Shown here: piece by piece, positions 3,562 to 54,633 of the stretch
Layout: the number at the start of each line of letters is the position of its first letter
Position numbering within the stretch: the stretch's first letter is position 1
Source: an uncultured Gammaproteobacteria bacterium
GTDB taxonomy: Bacteria > Patescibacteriota > Microgenomatia > Daviesbacterales > UBA10151
Length of the DNA stretch: 64,000 nucleotides
Direction: 5' to 3'
Assembly (NCBI GenBank): GCA_964360965.1
Contig: CAYHYM010000003.1
Span: 29 to 64,028, forward strand
Program-made: the position numbers and the translations under genes
Notes under the pieces: generated by a model
What the model saw: only the letters and a program-made list of their open reading frames with translations
Databases searched by the model: none
What the model was told of the DNA's origin: nothing

Positions 3562-4310
3562 ACACCCTTGGGGTGTATTCGTATTGACACCTGCGGATAT
3601 TTGAGATATGCTAGGCTCAAATGCCTTCCAGAATTTTCCCCTTTGTAAATGGGCAGTATTACCACATCTATAATAGGGGTGTAGAAAAAAGAACTATCTT
3701 TGAAAAAAGCTGGGACTACTCAAGACTTAAAAAGACAATGCAGTATTATCAGCTTCTCGGCCCTAAGCCAAGGCTATCTAAATTCCTATTAGGCTCAATT
3801 CTCAAGCCAGATACCAATAAGAAGATCGTGGACATTATTTGCTACTGTTTAATGCCAAATCATTTTCACTTTCTTATAAAACAGTTAAAAGAGGGTGGAA
3901 TTACAGAATTTGTTAGTAAATTAAGTAACAGTTATACCAAATATTACAATGTAAAATATAAACGGGTTGGACCCTTACTACAGGGAGAATTTAAAGCTGT
4001 ATTAGTAGAATCTGATGAACAATTGCTACATGTTTCTCGCTATATTCATTTGAACCCGATTGCTTCTTTTTTGGTAAAAGACTTAAATCTCTATGAATGG
4101 TCTTCTTATAAAGAATATACTAATAACCATAAAGGTATTTGTAATACGGAAGAAATTATGGGCTTTTTTAAAGATAGCTCCTCTTATCAAAAATTTTGTT
4201 TGGACCAAGTTGAATATGCCCAAAAACTGGAACTAATTAAGCATCAATTATTGGAAGAAGAATAATACACCCTTGGGGTGTATTTGTATTGACACCTGCG
4301 GATTTTTGAG
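3562..4310 (+). mobile_element. IS200/IS605-like minimal element. A Y1 transposase gene is flanked by ~44-bp imperfect direct repeats, each starting with a small hairpin.
   Basis: Left copy 3562..3606 ACACCCTTGGGGTGTATTCGTATTGACACCTGCGGATATTTGAGA and right copy 4267..4310 ACACCCTTGGGGTGTATTTGTATTGACACCTGCGGATTTTTGAG. Each begins with the palindrome ACACCC-TTG-GGGTGT. Subterminal hairpins in the same orientation at both ends are the hallmark of IS200-family ends. Confidence 0.6.
3621..4265 (+). CDS. tnpA: HUH Y1 tyrosine transposase (IS200-like / RAYT-like TnpA)
   Basis: 214 aa. HuH motif CYCLMPNHFHFLIK, catalytic Tyr region LHVSRYIHLNP, N-terminal YHIYNRG typical of PF01797 Y1_Tnp. It is longer than canonical 140-aa IS200 TnpA, closer to the RAYT-like subgroup. 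Confidence 0.75.
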   Translation: MPSRIFPFVNGQYYHIYNRGVEKRTIFEKSWDYSRLKKTMQYYQLLGPKPRLSKFLLGSILKPDTNKKIVDIICYCLMPNHFHFLIKQLKEGGITEFVSKLSNSYTKYYNVKYKRVGPLLQGEFKAVLVESDEQLLHVSRYIHLNPIASFLVKDLNLYEWSSYKEYTNNHKGICNTEEIMGFFKDSSSYQKFCLDQVEYAQKLELIKHQLLEEE

Positions 4311-8042: not shown

Positions 8043-10934
8043 GTGAAATTGCTGCCCCTTTTAATTTTTCTATTCACTTTTATTACGCTTCCCTCCCCAA
8101 TCTATGCTGTCACCATTGCTGAGCAAACCCAAAACTTTGGAAATCAGCTAAATGTCTGGCAGGCAATTCAAGAGCTGGGCAGCTTGCTTGATGGCAAGGC
8201 CGGTTCCTTTACTTTCAGGGTACGTACCACTAAGACCAACCTTGAAATGTTTGATTATACTGCTCAAAATACCAAGATTTATGATAAGGACACAAACACC
8301 AAAGTTGCCAACGGCTGCCACACAGGTTCTGCCTCTGATCCTTTGGGTGGCTTGACCTTTACCACAGCCGGGGTACCTGTTGGTTTTGAAGACGTGACAA
8401 TTGATTTTTCATCCTGTAACTCTTACTCCTTCACTCAAGGACATAAATATTTAATTATTATAAGTAATGCCAATATGGCACAATTTGGTGGAAGTTTAAT
8501 CTATTTTGCAGCCGCTGCTTACGGGTCAAGCAGCACTGACCATTTTAATGGTGGGGGTTTAAGGTATGCTTTTGATAATAAATTTTGCAACCCAATCACT
8601 TACCAATGGAATTCTTCAATAAGTAATGCAAATGAAGACCAATGTAATATTTGGACCACACCCAAAGATGACCTTTATTTTATTTTAGCCAACACCTCCC
8701 CTCCTCCCAAAACCCCGGTTATTTTTATACCCGGGATAGGGGGGTCTGAATTTAAAGCAGGGCAGGATATTATCTGGGCAGATCAGGATGATGGACATGG
8801 AGGAAAGTTTTCTCATGCTTATACATCTGGGGAGAAAATTTGGGTCAATGAGGGTAAGGCGGCCGAACTGGGGGAGGATGATTATTTTGATGTATTAAGA
8901 TTAAAATCTGATGGAGTAACTTCTGAGGCTTCTCTAAGTTTAACAGGAGATCTGACTTCTTTTGGTTATGGGGATATTGATTCATTTTTTACCGGATTGG
9001 GGTATGAGAAAGGTAAAAATTTCTTTGTTTTTCCCTATGATTGGAGAAAGGATGTGAGAGTTACCAAAGATAGTTTGGATGCCTTAATTGAGGAGGCAAA
9101 AACCAAATCAGGACAAACTAAGGTTAATCTAGTGGCCCATTCCATGGGAGGCTTGGTAGCCAGATATTATATTGCTGATTCAGGGAGAGCTTCTAAGGTT
9201 AATAAGCTAATTTCTATGGGAGTTCCCCATTTGGGAGCAACAAAAGCTTTGAAAACCCTAATGTATGGAGATGAAATAAAGAAGGATGTATTTGGTATAT
9301 TTGCACTAGGAATCCCATCAAGTGAGGTCAAAGACGTATTCCAAAATCTCCCCAGCGCATTCCAGCTTTTACCTTCCAAAAAATTTTATGATTTCTATGA
9401 CAACTCTGCTCAGAAACCTTTCCCGTTTAGCGACGAAAGAGATATTGACAGTAACAAAGTTACTGGAGCACTAAACTTTATTCAAATCAAAGGATTGCTG
9501 GAAAATTTAATACACAATATGACAGTATTTGACTTTGGAGAACAACTTCATAATTTAGCTGATCCATTACTTAATCAATCTTCAACAGTCAAGTTGTATA
9601 ACATAGCTGGTACCAGCCAACCTACTTTAGGACAAATCAGGGAAACGTGGTTAATACAGTGGCCTATTAATTTAATCTCTATAAGAGACGAGGTCTTTAT
9701 TAACGGAGACAATACAGTGCCGCTCTATAGTGCCTCACTTAAAAGTGATTCTTTAGATTTTTCAGGCAGTGCAACTATTTATTATGTGGAACAAAAACAC
9801 AGTGATCTGGTTTCAAAAGATGGCACAGCTATGCAAACAGTAAAGTCTATTTTAGAAGAATCTGATTTACCTGTTGAGGTTAAATCCGAAAAGATTGATT
9901 TGGAAGGACAGCATGTGTCTTTGGATGATGGGGAATTGGAATTGTATGATGATGAAGGAAAACATACTGGCATAAAAGATGACGGAGAAATTGAAACCAA
10001 TATTCCTGAAACTTTTTATTCAACATCAGGTAAAACTAAACATGCTTTTGTTAAAAAGAAAGCTAAAAAAGTGAAAGTGAGGGCTACTCGAAAAAAGAAA
10101 ACCTCATCAGATCCCAAAACAACCAATCTAAAAATTAGAAGTTATAAACAGGATAAGGTTTCTAAAACCACAATTTATAGAGATGTCTTAATTGCTGAAA
10201 CAGCCAAAGTTGAATTTGATCTGGATCCAGCAATTGATACTTCTCCAACCCTTGCATTATTTCCTGATTCCACCAAATCTGACAGCACAAATATTAATCT
10301 CACTAGTGAGGTATCAGGTGGTCCTGCCTTAGACCAAACATCACCTTCTACAAAGATAGAACTATCAGGAAGTAAAGATTCATTAGGCAAGTTTATATCC
10401 TCTGCCACAGTAACCTTAAGTTCCTCTGATTCTGAATCGGGAATTTTAAAAACAGAATATAGTTTGGATAATGGTAAGACTGTTCAAACGTACAGTAATC
10501 CATTCACTGTCTCAACTCCTGGTAAAACTACTTTACAGGTAAAGTCTATTGATAAATTAGGTAATGAGGAAATACCACAAGAAAAGGTCATAGAGATTGC
10601 TTCATCAACTTCTAGCTCATCTTCTTCCAGCTCATCTGGCAATAACTCATCAAGCACTGCACAATCCACCTCTGAGGAGTCCGTTCCGGTCACCTCCGAG
10701 GTGTTACGAAGTGACTCCTCGGAGGTGGATAGCACAAGCTCATCACAAGATATCCTGGGACTTAGCACCCAAAATCCAGTTTCATCTGCTCAATTAAAAC
10801 CTCTAACTAACAACCAACCTAATCTACTAACAAGCAGTATGTTGATCTTAACAATGTTTATGGCCCAAAGCGGAATAATTCTTTTGTCATCCTTAAGATC
10901 AGTTCTTTCTTTTCTTAAACCAACCCCAAAATAG
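8043..10934 (+). CDS. Large secreted, C-terminally membrane-anchored alpha/beta-hydrolase (lipase/LCAT-like) with Ser-rich low-complexity linker
   Basis: 963 aa, GTG start. Signal peptide MKLLPLLIFLFTFITLPSPIYA, PVIFIPGIGGSEF oxyanion region, nucleophile elbow VAHSMGGLVARYY, Lys-rich segment, poly-Ser stretch and C-terminal hydrophobic anchor LLTSSMLILTMFMAQSGIILLSSL. Confidence 0.6.
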   Translation: MKLLPLLIFLFTFITLPSPIYAVTIAEQTQNFGNQLNVWQAIQELGSLLDGKAGSFTFRVRTTKTNLEMFDYTAQNTKIYDKDTNTKVANGCHTGSASDPLGGLTFTTAGVPVGFEDVTIDFSSCNSYSFTQGHKYLIIISNANMAQFGGSLIYFAAAAYGSSSTDHFNGGGLRYAFDNKFCNPITYQWNSSISNANEDQCNIWTTPKDDLYFILANTSPPPKTPVIFIPGIGGSEFKAGQDIIWADQDDGHGGKFSHAYTSGEKIWVNEGKAAELGEDDYFDVLRLKSDGVTSEASLSLTGDLTSFGYGDIDSFFTGLGYEKGKNFFVFPYDWRKDVRVTKDSLDALIEEAKTKSGQTKVNLVAHSMGGLVARYYIADSGRASKVNKLISMGVPHLGATKALKTLMYGDEIKKDVFGIFALGIPSSEVKDVFQNLPSAFQLLPSKKFYDFYDNSAQKPFPFSDERDIDSNKVTGALNFIQIKGLLENLIHNMTVFDFGEQLHNLADPLLNQSSTVKLYNIAGTSQPTLGQIRETWLIQWPINLISIRDEVFINGDNTVPLYSASLKSDSLDFSGSATIYYVEQKHSDLVSKDGTAMQTVKSILEESDLPVEVKSEKIDLEGQHVSLDDGELELYDDEGKHTGIKDDGEIETNIPETFYSTSGKTKHAFVKKKAKKVKVRATRKKKTSSDPKTTNLKIRSYKQDKVSKTTIYRDVLIAETAKVEFDLDPAIDTSPTLALFPDSTKSDSTNINLTSEVSGGPALDQTSPSTKIELSGSKDSLGKFISSATVTLSSSDSESGILKTEYSLDNGKTVQTYSNPFTVSTPGKTTLQVKSIDKLGNEEIPQEKVIEIASSTSSSSSSSSSGNNSSSTAQSTSEESVPVTSEVLRSDSSEVDSTSSSQDILGLSTQNPVSSAQLKPLTNNQPNLLTSSMLILTMFMAQSGIILLSSLRSVLSFLKPTPK
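10691..10728. repeat. Family-A GC-rich palindromic module (CACCTCCGAGG-N15-CCTCGGAGGTG) inserted in-frame in the Ser-rich region of the lipase-like CDS
   Basis: 11-bp stem, 15-nt loop. Encodes VTSEVLRSDSSEVDS. The same arm sequences recur at 37955, 40767, 49149 and 54015. Confidence 0.6.
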
Positions 10935-14557: not shown

Positions 14558-17161
14558 GTGGAAAAGGCATATACAAAAACCGCTGAGCAAGTTATTAAAG
14601 ATCTAAAAACTGATCTTAAAGACGGGCTGACATCAGCCCAAGCCCAAAAAAGATTAGCACAATATGGCCCAAATGTCTTAAAAGAAGAGATCGGTAAAAA
14701 TCCTTTGCTGATTTTATTTTCCCAGTTCAGAAGCTTTTTGGTGATTATTTTAATAGTTGCCTCCATCATCTCATATCTGTTGGGTCATAGCCTTGACGCC
14801 TTGATGATTTTGGCCATTGTCGCAATTAATGCTGTCTTAGGCTTTATTCAAGAATATCGGGCAGAGGAATCCATCAAACATCTGAAAAAACTGGTCACTG
14901 CCAATGTCCAGGTGATCAGAGATGGCCGGTTAGTAGAGATTCCCCACTTTCAACTGGTACCAGGAGATTTGGTAATTGTAAGTGACGGCCAAAAAGTCCC
15001 GGCTGATTTAAGAGTAACACAATCCATCTATCTGCACCTTAATGAAGCACCACTGACCGGAGAATCAATTCCTGTCACCAAAGTAACAGACAGCTTACCC
15101 CCCAACACCAACATAGCTGATCAAAAAAATATGCTTTTTGCAGGCACCTCAGTCTCTTCTGGCAAGGGTATGGGGATAGTTGTATCAACAGCTATGAAAA
15201 CAGAAATTGGCCAAATTGCCCATCTGGTATCACAAGAGGTGGAACCAGAAACCCCCCTCAAACAAAAGCTGGATCGTTTGGGCAAACTTTTGGGCAGAAT
15301 TGTTTTAATCGTCGCCTCCTTAATTGCCCTGGAACAAATAATATTGGGTGAACCAGTTATTGAAGCTCTCATCTCATCAGTGGCCTTGGCAGTAGCAGCC
15401 ATACCAGAAGGCTTGCCTGCCATTGTCACCATCTCTTTGGCTTTGGGCACCAAAAGGCTTCTTAAACAACGTGCCTTAATCAGAAATTTGCCTGCCTCAG
15501 AAACCTTAGGATCAACAGAGGTAATATGTGTAGACAAAACTGGCACCCTAACAGAAGGAGAAATGTCTGTGAGAGAGATTTACGGCGCAAATATTCAAAA
15601 AATTCTCACTGTGGGGATACTTTCAAGCAATGCCAGAAAAAATAAAGACAGAATTATTGGAGATGCCACTGAGGCAGCTTTAATACAAAAGGCCATAGAT
15701 TCAGGACTGGATCAGGATCAATTGGATAAAAAATTTCCTCGAGTACAAGAAATACCCTTTTCTTCAGACAGAAAAATGATGACCACCATCTGCAAAGAGG
15801 ATAATCAATACCGGGTGACCAGCAAAGGTGCAACCGAAGTCATCTTGGACAAATGTTCACATATTGAGGAGAATGGCCAGGTTATACCATTAACTGAGGA
15901 GAAAAAAGAACAGATTTTAAAAGTTAATGACCAAATGGCCCAAGATGCCTTGAGGATTTTGGCTTTTGCCGAGAAGCGCATACACCTTGCAGGTGAAGAA
16001 AATGCAGTTACACCTGCGAGGTGGAAAGAAGAAGAGATAGAAAAAGATCTGATCTTTCTAGGCCTTCAGGGAATGATGGATCCACCAAGGGAAGGTGTTA
16101 AAGAGGCTATTGAGGTTTGTCAAAGAAAAGCAGGAATTAAAGTAATAATGATCACCGGAGATCACCTGTTAACTGCCCAATCCATTGCCAAAGAAATTGG
16201 TATCAAGGGGGAGAGCATCAGCGGTCAAGAGCTTGACAATCTTTCTGAAGAAGAATTTGTCAAAAAAGTTCAGGAAATTAACATCTATGCCAGGGTCAGC
16301 CCCACTCATAAAATTAGGATCATCAAGGCCCTAAAAGCCCGCGGTCATCAGGTGGCCATGACAGGTGATGGGGTCAATGATGCTCCGGCCTTAAAGGCTG
16401 CTGATACTGGGGTGGCCATGGGGGTTACGGGCACCGACGTGGCCAAAGATGCCTCAGATATAATTTTACTGGATGATAATTTCACCACCATTGTGCAAGC
16501 CATAAAAGAAGGAAGGACAATTTTTGACAACATCAGAAAATTTGTTAATTACCTGTTATCTTCAAACATTATGGAAATAATGGTGATATCTTTGGCTGTA
16601 ATTTTGGGTGGGGGACATTTGCCGCTTTTACCTATTCATCTTTTATGGATCAATCTGGTCACTGATGGGCTGCCGGCCCTGGCTTTGGGAGTTGATCCGC
16701 CCAGAGCAGACATCATGAGTTTACCGCCCCAAAATTTTAGGCAGCAGATATTGGGTGGTAGATCTTTAGGGCCTTTAACTGCCGTCAGTGTACTTTTAAC
16801 CATAGCTATCCTTGCTATTTTCTTTATCTATCAAAAAGATCCAATTTATGAACAAACCATGGTTTTTACATCCATTGTCTTTTATGAAATGTTAAGAATT
16901 ATTGCCATAAGGTCTGAATATAAACTGCCGTTTTTCTCAAATAAATTCTTAATCCTTGCTATAGCTGGATCATTAGCACTGCATCTTGTGATTCTTTATC
17001 TACCATTCTCTTTTGCAGGAGTAACATTGCAAGAATTATTTAAAGTTCAGCCGTTAAATCTTTTTGACTGGGTACTACTGCTTGGAATTGGCATCTTCCT
17101 TCTATTTATCATGAGAATCTTGGTCATTACACCTGTATTTAATTTTTTAAAAAAGCCTTGA
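14558..17161 (+). CDS. P-type cation-transporting ATPase, type IIA (Ca2+/SERCA-like)
   Basis: 867 aa. DKTGTLT, PEGLPA, TGDGVNDAPAL, 10 TM segments. Carries an in-frame palindromic insertion at 15983..16023. Confidence 0.9.
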   Translation: MEKAYTKTAEQVIKDLKTDLKDGLTSAQAQKRLAQYGPNVLKEEIGKNPLLILFSQFRSFLVIILIVASIISYLLGHSLDALMILAIVAINAVLGFIQEYRAEESIKHLKKLVTANVQVIRDGRLVEIPHFQLVPGDLVIVSDGQKVPADLRVTQSIYLHLNEAPLTGESIPVTKVTDSLPPNTNIADQKNMLFAGTSVSSGKGMGIVVSTAMKTEIGQIAHLVSQEVEPETPLKQKLDRLGKLLGRIVLIVASLIALEQIILGEPVIEALISSVALAVAAIPEGLPAIVTISLALGTKRLLKQRALIRNLPASETLGSTEVICVDKTGTLTEGEMSVREIYGANIQKILTVGILSSNARKNKDRIIGDATEAALIQKAIDSGLDQDQLDKKFPRVQEIPFSSDRKMMTTICKEDNQYRVTSKGATEVILDKCSHIEENGQVIPLTEEKKEQILKVNDQMAQDALRILAFAEKRIHLAGEENAVTPARWKEEEIEKDLIFLGLQGMMDPPREGVKEAIEVCQRKAGIKVIMITGDHLLTAQSIAKEIGIKGESISGQELDNLSEEEFVKKVQEINIYARVSPTHKIRIIKALKARGHQVAMTGDGVNDAPALKAADTGVAMGVTGTDVAKDASDIILLDDNFTTIVQAIKEGRTIFDNIRKFVNYLLSSNIMEIMVISLAVILGGGHLPLLPIHLLWINLVTDGLPALALGVDPPRADIMSLPPQNFRQQILGGRSLGPLTAVSVLLTIAILAIFFIYQKDPIYEQTMVFTSIVFYEMLRIIAIRSEYKLPFFSNKFLILAIAGSLALHLVILYLPFSFAGVTLQELFKVQPLNLFDWVLLLGIGIFLLFIMRILVITPVFNFLKKP
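15983..16023. repeat. Family-B 41-bp hairpin module (CACCTYGCAGGTG-AAGAAAATGCAGTTA-CACCTGCGAGGTG) inserted in-frame in the P-type ATPase CDS
   Basis: 13-bp perfect stem with 15-nt loop. 35 nt are identical to the intergenic copy at 40403..40443. Encodes RIHLAGEENAVTPARW in the cytoplasmic domain. Confidence 0.7.
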
Positions 17162-40402: not shown

Positions 40403-40443
40403 CACCTCGCAGGTGAAGAAAATGCAGTTACACCTGCGAGGTG
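40403..40443. repeat. Family-B 41-bp hairpin module, intergenic copy (5' UTR of recJ, upstream of cca)
   Basis: CACCTCGCAGGTG-AAGAAAATGCAGTTA-CACCTGCGAGGTG. On the recJ mRNA the 3' arm GAGGTG lies 8 nt before the recJ ATG, so the SD is sequestered in the stem. Identical over 35 nt to 15983..16023. Confidence 0.7.
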
Positions 40444-47351: not shown

Positions 47352-48566
47352 TTAATAACTTATCTTTGCGCCTTCCGGCACAGTCTGAATCCAAATCTGA
47401 CCAGGATTAAATTCTATTTCCTTACCATTGCTACTGACAAATTTAGTTCTATCTACTCTTTTATTTTTAACCCATTTACCTTCTATCGCAACACCGTCTT
47501 GAAAAATTAAAGCTTTACCAGTTCCTGTTGTACCATAAAGTAAATGGATATTGCCCGGATATCCGTCATTGGCATTTGCCTCCCTCTGAAATTGAACAAC
47601 TATATTTTTGGCTGCAAGCTGACGCTTATTGTTTAAATCAGTTTGTTCTATACCGCCATTTTTTCTTTTATAAGAATTTGAGACAGCATCATAAATCCAC
47701 TCCACACCATATTCACCCTGTCCTTCCCAGAAACTGACTGTAATTTTACTTATTTGCCCTTTAGTCTCTTGTGGTGAGCGTACTTGTACTGAGCTTGTCG
47801 AAGTAGTCGAACCATTAAACTTCCAAGGTACATAATTTTTGTCCCAGGAATCTCCATCCTCATCTTTTTCTACCCACCCTCTTTTGGCTGCTGTCTCCCA
47901 CAGCTTTTGGGTGGTGGAATACATGGTATGTTCTGTTGCCACCGGATGACCCAGTCTTTGATAATCCCTCCAAAAAATAGGAAAACCAATGCTAAATTGA
48001 TTTAAATCTTTGATTTTATATGCAATAATTTGAGAAAGCGCATCTGCCGGACCTGGGGTATTTGCTCCGCCAACATGGGCATATAAAGCATCATATTCTG
48101 AAAGCCAGTCCAGATAATAAGTCCGAGCAGATCTGACCGGTCCCACCTGAATATCAGACAAACGACAGTAAAAAATAGCCATAAATCTGGTAATTCCACC
48201 TTCTGCCACCGCCTCATAAATAATATCTGCAGAGGATAATCCTGATTGAGGTCTGGCCTCTGAGTGATTTTCAATCATTATTGCCAAGGGCCTTCTTTTC
48301 TCCCAAGCCTCTTTAGCCGCCTTGGTATGTAGACTGCCATTTAAAGGACATTTTTCTGTTTTTGGCTCTTTTTCATCTTCTTCAACAACGCTTGAGGGTC
48401 CCGGCAAAGAACTGATTAGCTCTCCGTTTAATGAGGGTGAGGTAGAGGAGAATACCGAATAAGAAAGTGTGGCGGAGGCACCGTAAATAAAAATTGATAA
48501 AATTATACCTACCAAAATCTGCTGCAGTTTAGTTAATTTTTGAAATGTTTCCAAAATACTGTTCAT
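47352..48566 (-). CDS. DUF3048 (YerB-like) secreted protein
   Basis: 404 aa. Signal anchor, then RPLAIMIENHSEARPQSGLSSADIIYEAVAEGGITRFMAIFY...VGPVRSARTYY matches the YerB/DUF3048 core. Carries Family-E module 47781..47806. Confidence 0.6.
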   Translation of the reverse strand: MNSILETFQKLTKLQQILVGIILSIFIYGASATLSYSVFSSTSPSLNGELISSLPGPSSVVEEDEKEPKTEKCPLNGSLHTKAAKEAWEKRRPLAIMIENHSEARPQSGLSSADIIYEAVAEGGITRFMAIFYCRLSDIQVGPVRSARTYYLDWLSEYDALYAHVGGANTPGPADALSQIIAYKIKDLNQFSIGFPIFWRDYQRLGHPVATEHTMYSTTQKLWETAAKRGWVEKDEDGDSWDKNYVPWKFNGSTTSTSSVQVRSPQETKGQISKITVSFWEGQGEYGVEWIYDAVSNSYKRKNGGIEQTDLNNKRQLAAKNIVVQFQREANANDGYPGNIHLLYGTTGTGKALIFQDGVAIEGKWVKNKRVDRTKFVSSNGKEIEFNPGQIWIQTVPEGAKISY

Positions 48567-48575
48567 GTTAAATTT

Positions 48576-49049
48576 CTAATTTTTTAAAGCTTCTTTAACC
48601 ACCTGATCTTCCTCCTCTGAAAACTGGTATTTATAAGCTTTACCAAGCTTTACAGATTTGGCAAAAACTCTGGTTTCTGATCTGGAATGAAGGCTGGTTA
48701 TAACTATCCCTGATCCTTCATTATCTAAAAAGACAACTGAAAAACTCATATTCCCTCCAGTATCATCATAAGGGTTGTAGCGCAAAAGTGCCACCTTTTG
48801 AATATGTTCCAATCCATCTTTTTCCAATCTTTCCAAAGTTCCCTTGATCTCATCAATACCCTTACCAAAACCCTCTACTTCTTTTAAAACTTCTTCAAAC
48901 TTTTTTCTAACATCCCGTTCACCACTCTTTGGAAAAAGAGATTTTAAAAAATTCCTTTGCTGCCATGCCAAAATTGTCAAAACCGTAAGCCATATAAAAA
49001 CTGCCACTGGCAGCAGCCATCCGGCAAAGTCGAACCAATCCGAATACAT
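48576..49049 (-). CDS. DUF4446-like membrane-anchored protein
   Basis: 157 aa, N-terminal TM. VALLRYNPYDDTGGNMSFSVVFLDNEGSGIVITSLHSRSETRVFAKSV resembles the DUF4446 consensus. Confidence 0.4.
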   Translation of the reverse strand: MYSDWFDFAGWLLPVAVFIWLTVLTILAWQQRNFLKSLFPKSGERDVRKKFEEVLKEVEGFGKGIDEIKGTLERLEKDGLEHIQKVALLRYNPYDDTGGNMSFSVVFLDNEGSGIVITSLHSRSETRVFAKSVKLGKAYKYQFSEEEDQVVKEALKN

Positions 49050-49092
49050 AAGTTACTCTTTTAATATAACTTATGAGTACAATTGTTGTCAA

Positions 49093-49129
49093 CTACGTTC
49101 ATGTAAACGTTCATGTAAACTGAACATAG
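49093..49129. repeat. Reverse-orientation, internally duplicated copy of the rnpB P3 hairpin
   Basis: Reverse complement CTATGTTCAGTTTACATGAACGT-TTACATGAACGT-AG versus rnpB P3 CTACGTTCAGTTTACATGAACGTAG (52398..52422). 19 nt are identical, plus a 12-nt tandem duplication. A Family-A module follows at 49149..49175. Confidence 0.55.
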
Positions 49130-49175
49130 TCAATCAAGTAAAATTTAACACCTCGGAGGTGGACTCTAACTCCTA

Positions 49176-49712
49176 TCAGAAAGTGACTAAGATTGGGCAA
49201 AAAACTAAATAGGTTCTTAAACTATCAATAGCCTTCGTAATTCTTTCAATAGTGAAATAAAATCTTTTACCTTTCCAGGGATCAATAATCACAATTTTAT
49301 CTCCAATCATTTTCTCAACTAACACAAAATGTGGAGCATGTACACTATGTCTTAAGTAATATATGTCTAAGTGTAAAATAAATAATTTTTGCTTATGAAT
49401 TATTTTCTGAATAAAGGGAATATTAATTCTTTGAAATTCTATCTCAAGCTTTCGATTAACAGGTAGATTTTTTAAGACTTTAGTGAAATATTTGTTACCT
49501 ACCCATACTTTCAAGGGAAGATTAAATTTTGTTGAGAACTCATTTAAAATACCTATATGGTAAATCTCTCTCGCAAACAGTATTCCTTTAAACAAAAGTT
49601 CTTGTTCATCCTCCAGCTTAAAACTGGTTCCTTTTATGTAAGATAACCACATCAGCAAACAGGCAGGAAGACAACTTTCGCAGGTGGTCTGTTTATAGGG
49701 AATAATTCTCAT
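49176..49712 (-). CDS. Stand-alone C39-like (papain-fold) cysteine peptidase domain protein
   Basis: 178 aa. QTTCESCLPACLLMWLSYIKG fits the C39 Q..C..ACL.M.L..G catalytic-Cys motif. Downstream His HAPHFVLVEKMIGDKIVIIDPW. Confidence 0.55.
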   Translation of the reverse strand: MRIIPYKQTTCESCLPACLLMWLSYIKGTSFKLEDEQELLFKGILFAREIYHIGILNEFSTKFNLPLKVWVGNKYFTKVLKNLPVNRKLEIEFQRINIPFIQKIIHKQKLFILHLDIYYLRHSVHAPHFVLVEKMIGDKIVIIDPWKGKRFYFTIERITKAIDSLRTYLVFCPILVTF

Positions 49713-49867
49713 AAAGATAACTTAGCATTTAAAAATTATTAAACAAGCCCCAAAATTTAGGTTCAAATTGCAACTTGCATATAAATATTTAAATGCTATA
49801 CTCCTTCCACTTTGAATATAAAAAAATGAAATTTTTATAAATTCAAAGTTAAAAGGAGGTGAAAAAT

Positions 49868-52375: not shown

Positions 52376-52662
52376 TGCCTAGGAAGAAGGATGATTGCTA
52401 CGTTCAGTTTACATGAACGTAGAGGAAAGTCCAGACAGCAAAGAGCAGGGTGTCCGGCGTAAGACGGAGGTCGTAAGATCCAGTTAGAGCAACAGTGACG
52501 AACCGAGGTAATGCTCGGATGAAACGGGCAATCCTCCCCGCTGCAATCCTAGAATCGGTCAGGTTGCTCGCCTGATGACCGGAGTAAGGAGCATTAGATA
52601 AATGATCATCAATCCTGACTAAATCGGGATGAACAGAATCTGGCTTACTCTCATCCTAGGCA
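52376..52662 (+). ncRNA. rnpB: RNase P RNA (bacterial type, compact)
   Basis: P3 hairpin 52398..52422, then GAGGAAAGTCCAGAC...AGAGCAGGGTG... (P4 5' strand, cf. GAGGAAAGTCCGGGC...CAGGGTGCC). Internal AGAGCAACAGTGACGAA (cf. GTGCAACAGAGAG). 3' ACAGAATCTGGCTTAC (P4 3' strand, cf. ACAGAACCCGGCTTA) then P1 closing TCATCCTAGGCA pairing with TGCCTAGG..ATGA at the 5' end. The 3' end overlaps the stop of the convergent AI-2E gene. Confidence 0.8.
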
Positions 52663-53624
52663 CTTTTTTCTTCTAATACTTCCATCCAAACTACTTGCAA
52701 AACAACCACAATCGGTACCGCCAAAAGTGCTCCCCCAAATCCTAAAAGTCTGGTCCCCACAGCCACAGCCAAAATAATAATTAAGGGATTTAAGCCTACT
52801 GCTCTTTTCATAACTTGCGGCACTATCAGATTATTTTCCAGCTGCTGAATAATAAAATACCAACCGACAACAGCAGCTGTTATAACCGGAGAAATAGTCA
52901 GCGCCAAAATAACTGCCGGAATTGCGGCAATGATCGGTCCAATAACCGGCACCACCTCCATGATTGCAGCAAGTAAAGCCAGAGGTAGCGCATAGGGAAT
53001 ATTTAAAATAATCAGCCCCAAATATACCAGCAATCCAATAATAATACTCAAAAACAACTGGCCCCTTACCCATGCTCCCAGCTTTTCCTCTATTCTGATG
53101 ATAGATTTTCTGATCTGTCCTGATCTTTCTCCAAATAAAGAAGGAGTTTTTTCTTCTAAACTCTCTTTTTCTAAAAGCAGATAGAAGGTTAAAACTAAAA
53201 CAAAAATCACCGTGATAAGATTACTGAATACTTCCAGGGTTATGGAAAAGATATTTTTGGAAAGATTGACCAATTGTGACTGAAAAACCGTGTCGTTAAC
53301 ATCTGACAGGTTAAATTGATCGGCTAGTAAAGGCGGAAGAGCAGAAATTAACCTGTTGCTTTGTTCAATAAGCGGCGGCAATAAAATGGCCAAAATGCCT
53401 GCCACTGCTGCTATTATGAAAATGTATGAAATGATAATTCCCAATGCTTTAGGCAATTTTAACTTAGTAAAAAAATTCACCAGAGGAGAAAGAGCAGACA
53501 TCAAAATTACTGCCACAAATAAAAGGATTAACAGATCTCTTATTAAGTAAAGCACCCAAAGACCCAAAATAAAAATGGTGATAAAAATAATTGTTTTATG
53601 TGAAATATCAATTTTTCTTGGCAT
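52656..53624 (-). CDS. AI-2E family transporter (UPF0118/PerM-like)
   Basis: 322 aa, 8 TM. Conserved LSALSPLV and PVIGPII motifs. Confidence 0.8.
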   Translation of the reverse strand: MPRKIDISHKTIIFITIFILGLWVLYLIRDLLILLFVAVILMSALSPLVNFFTKLKLPKALGIIISYIFIIAAVAGILAILLPPLIEQSNRLISALPPLLADQFNLSDVNDTVFQSQLVNLSKNIFSITLEVFSNLITVIFVLVLTFYLLLEKESLEEKTPSLFGERSGQIRKSIIRIEEKLGAWVRGQLFLSIIIGLLVYLGLIILNIPYALPLALLAAIMEVVPVIGPIIAAIPAVILALTISPVITAAVVGWYFIIQQLENNLIVPQVMKRAVGLNPLIIILAVAVGTRLLGFGGALLAVPIVVVLQVVWMEVLEEKSA

Positions 53625-54633
53625 TTTTTTTATTTATAGCACTATCATACCATTTAGCTACCAAGTTTTCTATTTGAAGAGAGTAATCTTTACCTGTAAT
53701 ATCAAACCAATTAATACTCTTTTCCTTTTTAAACCATGTTAGCTGACGTCTTACATAGCCGTGGATTTTGTTTTGCATTATTCTAATCAGCTCATTCTTA
53801 TTTTTAATTTTACCCTCCAAATAATCTGCCAAAACTCCATACTCTAACCCTAATTCTCTCATTCTTTTAAGCGATAAGCCATTTCCATGAAGTTTTTTTG
53901 CCTCCTCAATCATCCCCTGGTTTATGCGAGCTACAACTCTCTCATCCACTCTTTGATATAAAATCTTACGCGGAGCACTCAACCCTATTTTTAAAACATT
54001 ATAAGATGCAACACCACCTCGGAGGTGGCCCGCTTCGCAGCGAGGCGAGCCGTAAGGACTCCTCCTAGGTGAAATATCAAGCTCGATTGCCCTTATTAAC
54101 CTTCTTGAATTCTCCCTATCAGATTGATTTAAACTTTCCCATTTTTCAGGAGAAACCTTTTTTAACTTTTCTTGTAACTCTGCTTTAGATAATTTAGCCA
54201 GTCTATTTCTTAATTTTTTATCTACAGGTATGGCCAAATTTGGCAACCCCTCAAATATCGCTTTTAGATATAAACCTGTGCCACCCACTATAATTGGCAG
54301 CTTCCCCTTTGCCCTAATTTCCCCAATCACCCTGTCTGCATCTTTAACATAATCAGCCACACTGTATTGTTTTTTTGGAGAAACCACATCATACATCCAA
54401 ATTTTTATTCCATCTATTTCCCAATAACCTATATCATTAGACCTACAAGGTCTTATGCGTTTGACCTCATAGGTCGAATTAGATGGCATCTTGCCGGTGC
54501 CTATATCCAGTCCCCCATATATTTGTCTGGAATCACAAGATACCAACTCACCATTAAATTTCTTGGCCAAGTAAAGTGCCAAATCAGTTTTACCTGTAGC
54601 GGTCGGTCCCAAAATAACTAAAAGTTTTTTCAT
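53608..54633 (-). CDS. miaA: tRNA dimethylallyltransferase
   Basis: 341 aa. P-loop ILGPTATGKTDLAL, SCDSRQIYGGLDIGTGK. ~30 aa longer than usual owing to composite GC-rich insertion 54012..54072. Confidence 0.9.
   Translation of the reverse strand: MKKLLVILGPTATGKTDLALYLAKKFNGELVSCDSRQIYGGLDIGTGKMPSNSTYEVKRIRPCRSNDIGYWEIDGIKIWMYDVVSPKKQYSVADYVKDADRVIGEIRAKGKLPIIVGGTGLYLKAIFEGLPNLAIPVDKKLRNRLAKLSKAELQEKLKKVSPEKWESLNQSDRENSRRLIRAIELDISPRRSPYGSPRCEAGHLRGGVASYNVLKIGLSAPRKILYQRVDERVVARINQGMIEEAKKLHGNGLSLKRMRELGLEYGVLADYLEGKIKNKNELIRIMQNKIHGYVRRQLTWFKKEKSINWFDITGKDYSLQIENLVAKWYDSAINKKNAKKN
54012..54072. repeat. Composite Family-A plus Family-C GC-rich palindromic insertion in-frame in miaA
   Basis: CACCTCGGAGGTGG-CCCGCTTCGCAGCGAGGCGAGC-CGTAAGGACTCCTCCTAGGTG. 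Encodes ISPRRSPYGSPRCEAGHLRGGVAS. Confidence 0.6.

Follow-up and report, generated by a model that had tools for sequence, protein, structure and literature searches.

The palindromic elements of Rickettsia (RPEs) are 100–150 bp long and lie mostly in frame within protein-coding genes. Helix P12 of cyanobacterial RNase P RNA reportedly contains STRR repeats, a finding ascribed to Vioque in 1997; STRRs are tandem heptanucleotide repeats inside P12 that form no self-contained whole-helix hairpin and make no target duplications elsewhere. REP and REPIN elements, including GTAG-tagged families and the SMAG elements of Stenotrophomonas, are mobilized by RAYT (Y1 HUH) transposases (PMC3733652, PMC2817692, PMC3116915). 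In REPs, a GTAG or CGTC tetranucleotide stands at one end, unpaired and outside the stem (PMC3733652), and most of the repeats lie downstream of genes, where the neighboring ORFs are convergent or co-directional. Bacterial MITEs, among them Correia/NEMIS, RUP, ERIC, and others, are roughly 50–500 bp long, with an internal region and a recognizable parent IS (PMC3184786). The GC clusters of yeast mitochondrial genomes are a mobile DNA of very short palindromes, scattered through a genome that is itself compact (PMC4478555).

In a 64-kb stretch of DNA, here called the window, the palindrome at 49093–49129 and helix P3 of the RNase P RNA gene rnpB are probably, and we hold this with good though not full confidence, both copies of a single mobile DNA element that is small and non-autonomous, a 25-bp hairpin (Table 1). 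The family unit, N-Y-A-C-GTTCA-GTTTACA-TGAAC-G-T-R-N, is 25 nt long and folds into a 9-bp stem with a 7-nt loop. No description of the exact sequence or of such an element was found in the searchable literature. Like REPs, the element is a short (20–40 nt) dispersed palindromic hairpin of noncoding DNA with sub-families set by compensatory stem changes and a GT(A/G)G tetranucleotide at its foot, and with its 25 nt it falls within the REP size and stem-loop definition (a 20–40-bp palindrome). Unlike the unpaired REP tag, however, GT(A/G)G is itself part of the stem: as its 3′ foot it is base-paired to C(T/C)AC, and it thus occurs symmetrically at both ends. Its location also departs from that of REPs: divergent promoter regions and the interior of RNA genes often hold copies. 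The REP survey makes no mention of target duplication (PMC3733652), whereas copies of the element have one of 4 bp. The RAYT-like gene of the window is flanked by a different hairpin, ACACCCTTGGGGTGT, and its homologue in locus L164 by AACACCCGGTGTTG. Membership in the REP family was rejected on the unpaired GTAG tag, the genomic location, and the cognate RAYT.

The likeness to MITEs is closer in behavior than in size. Neither is autonomous; each ends in inverted repeats, duplicates a fixed length of its target site, inserts near promoters, and is patchily distributed with sub-families. The terminal inverted repeats are present as perfectly complementary 9-bp arms with conserved ends NYAC/GTRN, and the duplications and empty sites expected of a MITE are also met, with flanking repeats at 29 of 109 copies among the matches listed, against 1.6 expected, and seven relatives with an empty site. 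At 25 bp, comprising two 9-bp arms and the 7-nt loop, the element does not meet the MITE size range. With RPEs it shares the character of a selfish palindromic repeat tolerated in functional genes at permissive structural positions, but unlike them it avoids coding sequence and replaces whole RNA helices. With STRRs it shares the presence of a genomic repeat family within a peripheral helix of an RNase P RNA that retains its function. We know of no 4-bp YNNR duplication made by GC clusters. These resemble the element as very short, dispersed mobile palindromes but differ from it in being organellar, GC-rich, and of different size.

Table 1. Features of the window referred to in the text
Feature	Position	Strand	Basis or remark
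RAYT-like gene	3621–4265		Pfam Y1_Tnp, 35.7 bits; NCBIfam REP_Tyr_transpos, 47.8 bits, below the cut-off of 80
DUF4446 gene, downstream of the insertion	48576–49049	−	Pfam PF14584; 54% identity to the L023 orthologue
Sigma-70-type DUF4446 promoter	49063–49092	−	−35 TTGACA 49087–49092, 18-nt spacer, −10 TATATT 49063–49068
Downstream target-site duplication copy, TTGA	49089–49092	−	Bases 1–4 of the −35 hexamer TTGACA
Damaged copy of the 25-nt hairpin element	49093–49129	−	37 nt owing to a 12-nt internal tandem duplication
Tandem duplication GTTTACATGAAC x2 (loop and 3′ arm) within the element copy	49097–49120	−	
Upstream target-site duplication copy, TTGA	49130–49133	−	Sequence; family-wide 4-bp flanking direct repeat
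"Family-A" hairpin CACCTCCGAGGTG, then TTAAATTTTA	49149–49161	−	Separate repeat family
rnpB, reduced class A RNase P RNA, 285 nt	52379–52663	+	Rfam RF00010, 125 bits, E 7.8e-38
Intact 25-nt element, the whole P3 helix	52398–52422	+	9-bp stem, loop GUUUACA
Second rnpB helix, P18-like position, ATCCTGACTAAATCGGGAT	52612–52630	+	

The palindrome was flagged in an initial annotation of the window as an inverted duplicate of rnpB P3, 3.3 kb from rnpB, that carries a 12-nt internal tandem duplication, and both observations hold. Read on the minus strand, the segment is CTATGTTCAGTTTACATGAACGTTTACATGAACGTAG, which corresponds to P3 (CTACGTTCAGTTTACATGAACGTAG) with a single transition, C>T, and a tandem duplication of GTTTACATGAAC; GTTTACATGAACG is found at 49096–49108 and again at 49108–49120. 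The window contains the 17-mer GTTCAGTTTACATGAAC at exactly two places (49109–49125 on the minus strand and 52402–52418 on the plus strand), and its expectation from 100 dinucleotide shuffles is zero. The C>T change produces a U·G wobble on the minus strand, for which the predicted folding energy is −11.5 kcal/mol versus −5.8 kcal/mol for the plus strand. Covariance model R1 scores the P3 copy at 47.6 bits and the palindrome at 28.7 bits (E about 1e-5), and a scan of the 64 kb with this model returned no degenerate further copies, for a total of two. The identical 37-nt sequence, duplication included, is present in two Hainich groundwater contigs (L001 and L002); because these were assembled independently, the duplicated copy is no assembly artefact.

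On either side of the intergenic copy stands the same 4-bp sequence, TTGA when read on the minus strand, a direct repeat that had gone undescribed in the initial annotation. The promoter that it adjoins, TTGACA-18-TATATT, is the top promoter match of the region (11 of 12 positions) and is kept in ten Daviesbacteria genomes, the alignment of the relatives beginning exactly at TTGACA. Seven of the ten (L213, L214, L215, L216, L218, L219, and L023) have an empty site with a single TTGACA. Two others, L211 and L212, have different hairpins at the same promoter TTGA, which is likewise duplicated. The filled site of L211 reads ..CCTTCA-TTGA-CCACAACTAGTTTACATAGTTGTGG-TTGACA, where the counterpart in L214 and L219 is ..CTTCA-TTGACA, and that of L212 reads TTGA-TCCCGATTTAATCGGGA-TTGACA. 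The window copy is inserted into the TTGA of the DUF4446 −35 box, and the duplication restored TTGACA, so that the promoter survived. The copy sits upstream of the −35 box and hence outside the DUF4446 transcript. The "Family-A" module previously reported at 49149 is present as CACCTCGGAGGTGG (49149–49162); this hairpin looks like a terminator of the upstream C39-like gene (49176–49712).

A scan of public metagenomes with an 18-mer of the element retrieved at least 120 loci, and the motif is therefore not unique to the two loci of the window. Family statistics here and below are those among the matches listed. Conservation extends beyond the searched 18-mer to positions −1 (C, 106/110), −2 (A, 98/110), −3 (Y, 106/110), and +1 (T, 101/110), outside of which the flanks are random. 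Stem pair 3 is maintained by double changes (C-G 56, T-A 44, mixed 8), pair 4 occurs as all four Watson-Crick types, and 81 double-sided cells were counted versus 32.6 in shuffles, with none of 500 shuffles as high. Outside ORFs of at least 100 amino acids lie 104 of 119 copies; residence within coding sequence was rejected for the remainder, every one of which is at an ORF edge. Between protein genes there is no preference of orientation (7 sense versus 8 antisense), and the 22 copies with both neighbors within 160 nt comprise 15 in tandem, 6 in divergent, and 1 in convergent arrangement. An intrinsic terminator or 3′-UTR hairpin was also rejected: no T-run follows the hairpin family-wide, only 1 of the 22 copies lies between convergent genes, and copies occur within rnpB, introns, and divergent promoter regions. 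The element is dispersed across many genomes of uncultured bacteria, probably Patescibacteria/CPR, the host taxonomy of most of the metagenome contigs being unverified. GTDB loci around ComM, 900 kb in all, yielded no copy. Viral contigs gave seven 17-mer matches, six of them chance matches without the stem; one viral contig copy (L088) has a CAGG duplication.

The duplication at the DUF4446 promoter is one of many. Of 109 distinct copies among the matches listed, 29 lie between perfect 4-bp direct repeats, where permutation gives a mean of 1.57 and a maximum of 7, and the flanking 4-mers of 14 further contexts agree at three of four positions. The repeats draw on thirteen different 4-mers and usually fit the pattern YNNR, with TTGA, CTTG, CAAG, CAGG, and CCTG recurring. 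An IS200/IS605-style model, in which guide and cleavage site correspond, was rejected; because the single outer-stem type CTAC is paired with six different 4-mers, there is no guide code for the flanking sequence. Among perfect hairpins in general, 4-bp repeats were seen at 40 of 1042 in hairpin-bearing loci and 6 of 202 in Daviesbacteria loci, against 10 of 5587 in other genomes. Reconstruction of empty sites among the hairpin-selected contigs yielded only tRNA cross-matches.

The second copy in the window constitutes an entire RNA helix. The Rfam alignment pairs 52398–52406 with 52414–52422 at a score above the threshold of 100 bits, and the element is flush with P2 and with the conserved AGGAAAGUCC (J3/4–P4), without a flanking duplication. 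The P18-like helix of the same RNA is a member of a different dispersed family of hairpins, NYCCGAT-NNN-ATCGGRN, with identity at 17 of 19 positions to the hairpin inserted at the L212 DUF4446 promoter. The initial annotation had proposed a comparison with the P3 of related genomes, and this P3 is not shared: L023, L211, L212, L213, L214, L217, and L218 have a different hairpin there. That the P3 of L023 might be a decayed element copy was rejected, as it is homologous to the L218-type P3, GTCCGACGTTACGTCGGAC. Beyond the window, the element is the whole of P3 in at least nine further RNase P RNAs that are only 55–68% identical to one another (L099, L100, L102, L103, L104, L183, L195, and L164 among them), and the rnpB genes of L102, L104, and L183 hold second copies. 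It also forms P8 of group I introns, some of which lie kilobases into 23S rRNA genes, as well as helices in a glmS ribozyme and a cobalamin riboswitch. An apparent CAGA/AAGA repeat around the intron copies was rejected as a 4-bp duplication, since it consists of the conserved P3′ and J8/7 and the hairpin is the whole of P8. RNA-embedded copies have no duplication and lie flush in place of the resident helix. Among the matches listed, 16 of 123 copies adjoin tRNA genes, at their 3′ ends and in some cases between tRNAs, as in L177 (..ggcCCTG[CCAC..GTGG]CCTGCCA). The suggestion that P3 derives from, or was donated to, a mobile hairpin family is supported by the metagenome loci and by the different P3 of related genomes. 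The direction is from element to P3, which is element-derived, because the element has target-site duplications at dozens of unrelated sites and also fills other helices of other RNAs.

The presence of the hairpin in so many RNAs could also be the outcome of selection. The hairpin would then be a functional RNA module, perhaps the binding site of a lineage-specific RNA-binding protein or a favored folding cap, that selection has brought into peripheral helices of group I introns and of RNase P, glmS, and cobalamin RNAs, as well as into the flanks of pre-tRNAs; intergenic copies would be by-products. We consider this unlikely, although it deserves to be kept in view, and it is compatible with mobility at the DNA level, in that a mobile element could have been exapted. 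Roughly 40% of the distinct contexts among the matches listed are in or touching structured RNAs, in which the hairpin is always a whole helix flush with conserved flanks, and several helices per RNase P RNA are occupied in L102, L104, and L183. The 21-nt core is identical across rnpB genes that otherwise share only 55–68% identity, the sense orientation dominates in structured RNAs (GUUUACA in 8 of 9 P3 helices), and compensatory changes preserve the stem, as in the GTACA/TGTAC variant of L140. Target duplications and empty sites nevertheless establish insertion of DNA, and selection on an RNA is difficult to reconcile with the position of the window copy outside the DUF4446 transcript or with the distribution among the matches listed, in which divergent promoter regions often hold copies (6) and the spaces between convergent genes seldom do (1). 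Both loop orientations are found in the same helix of homologous RNAs (P3 of L164, glmS of L156, and the introns of L095, L126, and L202), mismatches are not skewed toward G·U on the sense strand (about 12 G·U versus about 8 A·C), closely related genomes lack the element, and the same helices are filled by unrelated hairpin families. Flush replacement and the presence of unrelated hairpins at shared sites would be explained by copying without a transposase, in which replication or repair switches template at stalled hairpins through microhomology at the foot; identical 4-mers on both sides would give an apparent duplication, and differing microhomologies a flush swap. The absence of a transposase from the fetched loci, the small set of recurrent 4-mers, and the slippage evident in the 12-nt duplication of the window copy itself agree with such copying, which we regard as quite unlikely all the same. 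The repeat length is fixed at 4 bp, decaying to three of four matches with no spread of lengths, the YNNR symmetry of the target is typical of enzymatic staggered cleavage, and the identical core in distant lineages would require horizontal transfer as well. To our knowledge, template switching between distant loci at such frequency is not an established process.

Two explanations more local in scope carry little weight. An operator through which a dimeric DNA-binding protein regulates rnpB, from a site at +20 to +44, as well as the DUF4446 promoter, from a site just upstream of −35, would account for the perfect inverted repeat ACGTTCA-N7-TGAACGT and for its position next to the −35 box, which recurs in several metagenome loci, but we find it highly improbable. 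It was rejected because the arm positions covary as base pairs rather than independently and because the TTGA/CTTG target duplication accounts for the adjacency to TTGAC. Moreover, the loop is conserved and asymmetric, sites are found in the 23S rRNA introns and between tRNAs, and the site is missing from relatives that share the conserved promoter. We attach next to no credence to the 49.1-kb copy being a local duplication of an rnpB fragment or, as the initial annotation had offered, the remnant of a second, degraded rnpB. The two copies are only 3.3 kb apart, are both of the CTAC/GTAG subtype, and have TGATTG upstream with a 1-nt offset, but GATTG also precedes the promoter of the hairpin-less L023, and the flank match is thus probably coincidental. 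No RF00010 match was obtained in 48500–49800 at E ≤ 10, pairwise alignment gave no similarity outside the hairpin, the copy has a TTGA duplication of its own, and the element is present at no fewer than 120 unrelated loci. The P3 copy as transposition donor of the 49.1-kb copy is indistinguishable from any other donor.

On the mobile-element reading, an enzyme acting in trans would cut the target with a 4-bp stagger and insert the hairpin, as happens with MITEs. From its point change and slippage duplication, we infer that the intergenic copy is now dead; we also infer that the P3 copy is an older insertion, which may persist since a 9-bp hairpin between P2 and J3/4 would meet all requirements of P3. 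Copies presumably survive where hairpins are harmless, in apical RNA helices, at tRNA ends, and in promoter-proximal spacers; at tRNA ends, the CCA of the element itself would stand in for that of the tRNA. The mobile-element reading leaves unexplained the flush helix replacement without duplication and the identity of the moving protein, which is unknown. The flush copies count against it because simple insertion predicts otherwise. In 1.7 Mb of fetched loci, which are not whole genomes, neither a transposase or full-length parent element with these ends nor pairs of solo ends were found, and the only proteins recurrent beside the hairpins in these loci were those of housekeeping genes and LAGLIDADG endonucleases. 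All elements known to us that make target duplications are far larger than 25 bp, and the ends of a double-stranded 25-mer are hard to bring to cuts 4 bp apart. That no fewer than three unrelated hairpin families share the same TTGA site is odd for sequence-specific transposases, and the invariant 21-nt core and the predominance of GUUUACA could both be compatible with selection at the RNA level. The small number of copies, two in the window and none in the 900 kb of GTDB loci, also counts against mobility.

A broader proposal, which we advance only tentatively and think somewhat doubtful, is that Patescibacteria have a hairpin-mobilizing system that reads structure rather than sequence. Such a system may move at least three unrelated hairpin families of 17–25 nt, namely GTTCA-GTTTACA with its inner-stem variants, NYCCGAT-NNN-ATCGGRN, and CCYGTACC-ATMC-GGTACRGG. 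Their insertion may take place at YNNR sites, among them the TTGA of −35 boxes, and duplicate 4 bp there, and the system may also swap whole peripheral helices of ribozymes, introns, and riboswitches.

If the mobile-element reading holds, a 25-bp hairpin would be a complete mobile unit that makes target-site duplications, well under the size of any described MITE, which raises the question of which enzyme can move such a unit. Selfish or semi-selfish hairpins would fill peripheral helices of essential RNAs, comprising RNase P RNA, group I introns, the glmS ribozyme, and the cobalamin riboswitch, in a major and poorly known bacterial radiation. RNA homology searches, structure-based alignments, and phylogenies built from such RNAs would be affected, and an identical P3 in distant lineages would be no evidence of common descent. 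Repeated landings at the same −35 box and at tRNA CCA ends would regenerate the disrupted signal, providing a clean natural example of selection filtering insertions. The hairpin family also offers a testable handle on the mobile DNA of uncultured organisms, through insertion polymorphism in groundwater time series. Were the structure-recognizing system to prove real, its hairpins would be the smallest known transposable units, and module swapping would be a new route in the evolution of structured RNAs.

The G+C content of the window is 38%, and the genome is of the Microgenomates/Daviesbacteria type (Patescibacteria, CPR). Relatives of the window ComM/YifB protein at 70–77% identity carry the name Candidatus Daviesbacteria or Microgenomates, and identical contigs were recovered from 0.1-μm filtered Hainich groundwater. 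The gene order MiaA, AI-2E transporter, rnpB, ComM is kept across the Daviesbacteria relatives. The RNase P RNA is 285 nt long and represents a reduced form, because the Rfam alignment lacks both the P13/P14 region and the P18 normally present.

Features of the window and of compared loci (L-numbers: metagenome contigs, a viral contig and Daviesbacteria genomes)
Feature	Location	Strand	Remark
RAYT/IS200-like Y1 (HUH) transposase gene	window 3621-4265	+	Pfam PF01797 (Y1_Tnp), 35.7 bits
Family-A loci	window 10666-10728, 16010, 20126, 37956, 40403-40443, 40768, 49148, 54014
DUF4446 gene	window 48576-49049	-	one flank of the 37-nt hairpin copy
C39-like peptidase gene	window 49176-49712	-	other flank of the 37-nt hairpin copy
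rnpB, reduced class A RNase P RNA	window 52379-52663	+	sole Rfam RNase P RNA match in the window
P3 of rnpB	window 52398-52422	+	CUACGUUCA-GUUUACA-UGAACGUAG, Rfam alignment
Second-family copy	window 52612-52630	+
Second-family copies	L212 8888-8904; L119 7611-7627; L211 5610, 5782; L112 5259; L122 5133
Element copy, ATAC/GTAT subtype	L088 5854-5884		CAGG target duplication; phage-like contig IMGVR_UViG_3300005545_000003

The window contains exactly two occurrences of the 17-mer GTTCAGTTTACATGAAC, one within P3 and one at 49109–49125 on the minus strand, against none expected by chance. The minus-strand sequence at 49093–49129 is the P3 sequence carrying a tandem duplication of GTTTACATGAAC and a single C>T change, the latter producing a U·G wobble in that strand. 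The shared 17-mer and the identical 37-mer found in two independent assemblies confirm the P3-like hairpin copy described in the initial annotation, which had proposed either a mobile hairpin or a fragment of a second degraded rnpB. Around the copy, no further rnpB sequence is observed: an Rfam search at E ≤ 10 is blank, and no similarity is found outside the hairpin. On the minus strand, the spacer reads CACCTCCGAGGTG+TTAAATTTTA, TTGA, the 37-nt hairpin, TTGACA, 18 nt, TATATT, AAAAGAGTAACTT and ATG. The upstream Family-A hairpin, CACCTCCGAGGTG + TTAAATTTTA, looks like a terminator, and TTGACA-18 nt-TATATT scores 11/12, the top promoter match within 5.5 kb.

Public metagenome contigs were scanned for exact matches to the 18-mer GTTCAGTTTACATGAACG, which yielded at least 120 loci. 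These matches are not chance occurrences, and positions outside the query are conserved: among the matches listed, −1 is C in 106/110, −2 is A in 98/110, −3 is C or T in 106/110, −4 is C in 77/110 and +1 is T in 101/110, with random sequence beyond −5/+4. The conserved positions thus define a 25-nt hairpin unit with the consensus N-Y-A-C-GTTCA-GTTTACA-TGAAC-G-T-R-N. In the same matches, the two outer pairs covary, pair 3 being C-G in 56 and T-A in 44 and pair 4 adopting all four Watson-Crick types; 94% of cells are paired, and double-sided changes number 81 versus 32.6 in shuffles (0/500 as high). Extra, unselected copies on the same contigs are decayed, with stem and loop variants, and sister subfamilies share the ends and loop with an inner stem of AACTA/TAGTT, AAGCA/TGCTT or ATTCA/TGAAT. 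Most copies (104/119 among the matches listed) lie outside ORFs of at least 100 aa, and those examined among the ORF-internal copies are located at ORF edges and not within recognized domains. No copy was found in 900 kb surrounding ComM genes in 80 GTDB species, and IMG/VR yielded a single genuine copy, on the viral contig L088. A DUF3800-IX RNA motif lies approximately 950 nt away from that copy, which resides in an intergenic spacer.

Among the matches listed, the four bases 5′ of the hairpin are identical to the four bases 3′ of it in 29 of 109 distinct contexts, and three of four match in 14 additional contexts; permutation yields a mean of 1.57 and a maximum of 7 for the 4-bp repeats. 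Such identity marks a 4-bp target-site duplication. The flanking 4-mers are of thirteen kinds, mostly YNNR (CTTG, CAAG, TTGA, TCAA, CAGG, CCTG, CGGG, CCCG, TTAA and others), and the repeat-flanked share of perfect hairpins is 3–4% in hairpin-bearing and Daviesbacteria loci versus 0.2% in other genomes. The window copy has the context TTGA|CTATG..CGTAG|TTGAcaac, in which the second TTGA opens the −35 hexamer. The DUF4446 promoter is common to ten Daviesbacteria genomes, in which similarity to the window starts exactly at TTGACA. Seven of these (L023, L213, L214, L215, L216, L218 and L219) have a single TTGACA and no hairpin. The L211 promoter reads ..CCTTCA-TTGA-CCACAACTAGTTTACATAGTTGTGG-TTGACA, with the counterpart ..CTTCA-TTGACA in L214 and L219, and that of L212 reads TTGA-TCCCGATTTAATCGGGA-TTGACA. 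As seen in the window, L211 and L212, the same 4-bp target thus received a different hairpin in each of three lineages, and in every case the duplication restores the −35 box. The element also adjoins a tRNA 3′ end in 16/123 cases among the matches listed, where its own CCA(C) substitutes for the tRNA CCA and the original end is shifted downstream, as in L177 (..ggcCCTG[CCAC..GTGG]CCTGCCA). A tRNA-Ile/tRNA-Val spacer is made wholly of the element at L163 (11769–11797) and in L170; its outer stem there combines the CCA of one tRNA with the leading G residues of the tRNA that follows.

The element is also a building block of structured RNAs. It forms the entire P3 of the RNase P RNAs on L099, L100, L102, L103, L104, L183 and L195 and, with the loop orientation reversed, of that on L164; the RNAs with the element as P3 share only 55–68% identity. 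In L102 and L104 a second copy occupies a P18-like position, and in L183 a second copy lies in the P12/13 region. In group I introns, within 23S rRNA genes as well as elsewhere, the element likewise constitutes the entire P8 and occurs in both orientations; homologous introns have a 5-bp GNRA hairpin or a second-family hairpin instead. It also appears in the 5′ portion of a glmS ribozyme and within a cobalamin riboswitch. In all of these hosts, the hairpin is flush with conserved flanks and lacks a flanking duplication. Each of the 23S rRNA genes of L095, L112, L122, L126, L151 and L159 contains several group I introns, of which some include ORFs for LAGLIDADG endonucleases; the Rfam intron model misses some hairpin-carrying intron-like insertions in 23S genes.

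Comparison of P3 in related genomes, as the initial annotation had proposed, reveals that it differs: nearly every Daviesbacteria genome examined has a distinct perfect hairpin. L195, with the element as P3, is 86% identical to L023, without it, and the P3 helices of L211 (GTCCCGATTAAATCGGGAC) and L213 (ACCTGTACCATCCGGTACGGGT) belong to repeat families found elsewhere. The window P3 is therefore interpreted as element-derived; of the two directions left open, derivation from a mobile family stands and donation to one does not. It is judged highly probable that both window copies belong to a mobile hairpin family and that P3 derived from the element. This reading is supported, and it is sharpened by the 4-bp target duplication, the −35 box hot spot, the relatives' empty sites and the occurrence of the element as a complete helix in many structured RNAs.

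A second dispersed family, NYCCGAT-NNN-ATCGGRN, provides the P18-like helix of the window rnpB (17/19 identical to the hairpin in the L212 promoter), the entire P3 of the L211 rnpB and, in group I introns, helix P8; 4-bp direct repeats (TTGA, CTTG, TTCA, CCAA, CGAG) accompany its intergenic copies. A third, CCYGTACC-ATMC-GGTACRGG, is shared by two distinct RNase P RNAs, in a different helix of each: L213 5874 (rnpB P3) and L103 869 (rnpB P12 region). Family-A palindromes, CACCTC(C/G)GAGGTG, occupy nine window loci (18 matches versus 0.1 expected). Their sequence reads as an anti-Shine-Dalgarno paired with a Shine-Dalgarno. One copy (54014–54028) lies within a hypervariable linker of the MiaA ORF, a segment in which the relatives are a few residues shorter than the window protein. 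An ∼45-nt repeat, CACCT(C/T)GCAGGTGAAGAAAATGCAGTTACACCTGCGAGGTG, comprising two related hairpins, is present at ∼15985–16024 and 40403–40443.

The window also encodes a RAYT-like protein (RAYTs are Y1 transposases cognate to REP palindromes) with HUH (HFH) and tyrosine (YIHLNP) motifs, which scores 47.8 bits against NCBIfam REP_Tyr_transpos, under the model cut-off of 80. Its gene has 37-nt direct repeats on both sides (3562–3598, 4267–4303), which include the hairpin ACACCCTTGGGGTGT and a TTGACA, and a 40% identical homologue on L164 (7079–7744) is flanked by AACACCCGGTGTTG hairpins. This protein likely mobilizes a REP-like family, possibly Family A. The flanking hairpins resemble Family-A modules (CACCTCSGAGGTG) more than the P3-type element, which makes the RAYT a stronger candidate mobilizer of Family A than of the element.

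The data establish a 25-bp palindromic unit that is dispersed and noncoding, with duplicated 4-bp targets and empty orthologous sites; confidence in the enzymology of its mobilization is considerably lower than in the mobile-family reading. By inference, an enzyme acting in trans would move the element by making cuts staggered by 4 bp, with a symmetric preference for YNNR, and copies would be kept only where the hairpin is harmless. A point change and a slippage duplication may have inactivated the intergenic copy, and the P3 copy may have been retained because a stable hairpin placed between P2 and J3/4 is sufficient as P3. Four points weigh against a classical transposon: neither a parent element nor a recurrent transposase was found in 1.7 Mb of loci screened, the unit is very small, one target is used by unrelated families and the helix swaps are flush. 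The last two features would be explained if hairpins spread by template-switching or repair-based copying, which is a poorer fit to the fixed 4-bp length.

The enrichment of the element in structured RNAs, its invariant core across distant rnpBs and its sense bias in P3 (8 to 1) suggest a function at the RNA level, for example as a protein-binding module. Several findings weigh against such a function as the sole explanation: the same helices hold both orientations, orientation between protein genes is unbiased (7 to 8), mismatches lack a clear G·U skew, the element is absent in close relatives and the window intergenic copy lies upstream of the DUF4446 promoter, outside the transcript of that gene.

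The nearest described systems to the mobile hairpin are REP/REPIN elements and MITEs. Three parts of the REP definition (PMC3733652) do not fit the element: a GTAG/CGTC tag on one side that stays unpaired, placement downstream of genes and a cognate RAYT. The element also has a target duplication, a feature that goes unmentioned for REPs in that paper. The inverted-repeat and duplication criteria of MITEs are met, but the element is several-fold too small and without a known parent. In the searchable literature, the element sequence is absent, and no description of such elements in CPR bacteria was found. We classify the element with small palindromic mobile DNA, in which either the unexplained mobilization mechanism or the helix-swap phenomenon could prove new in kind.
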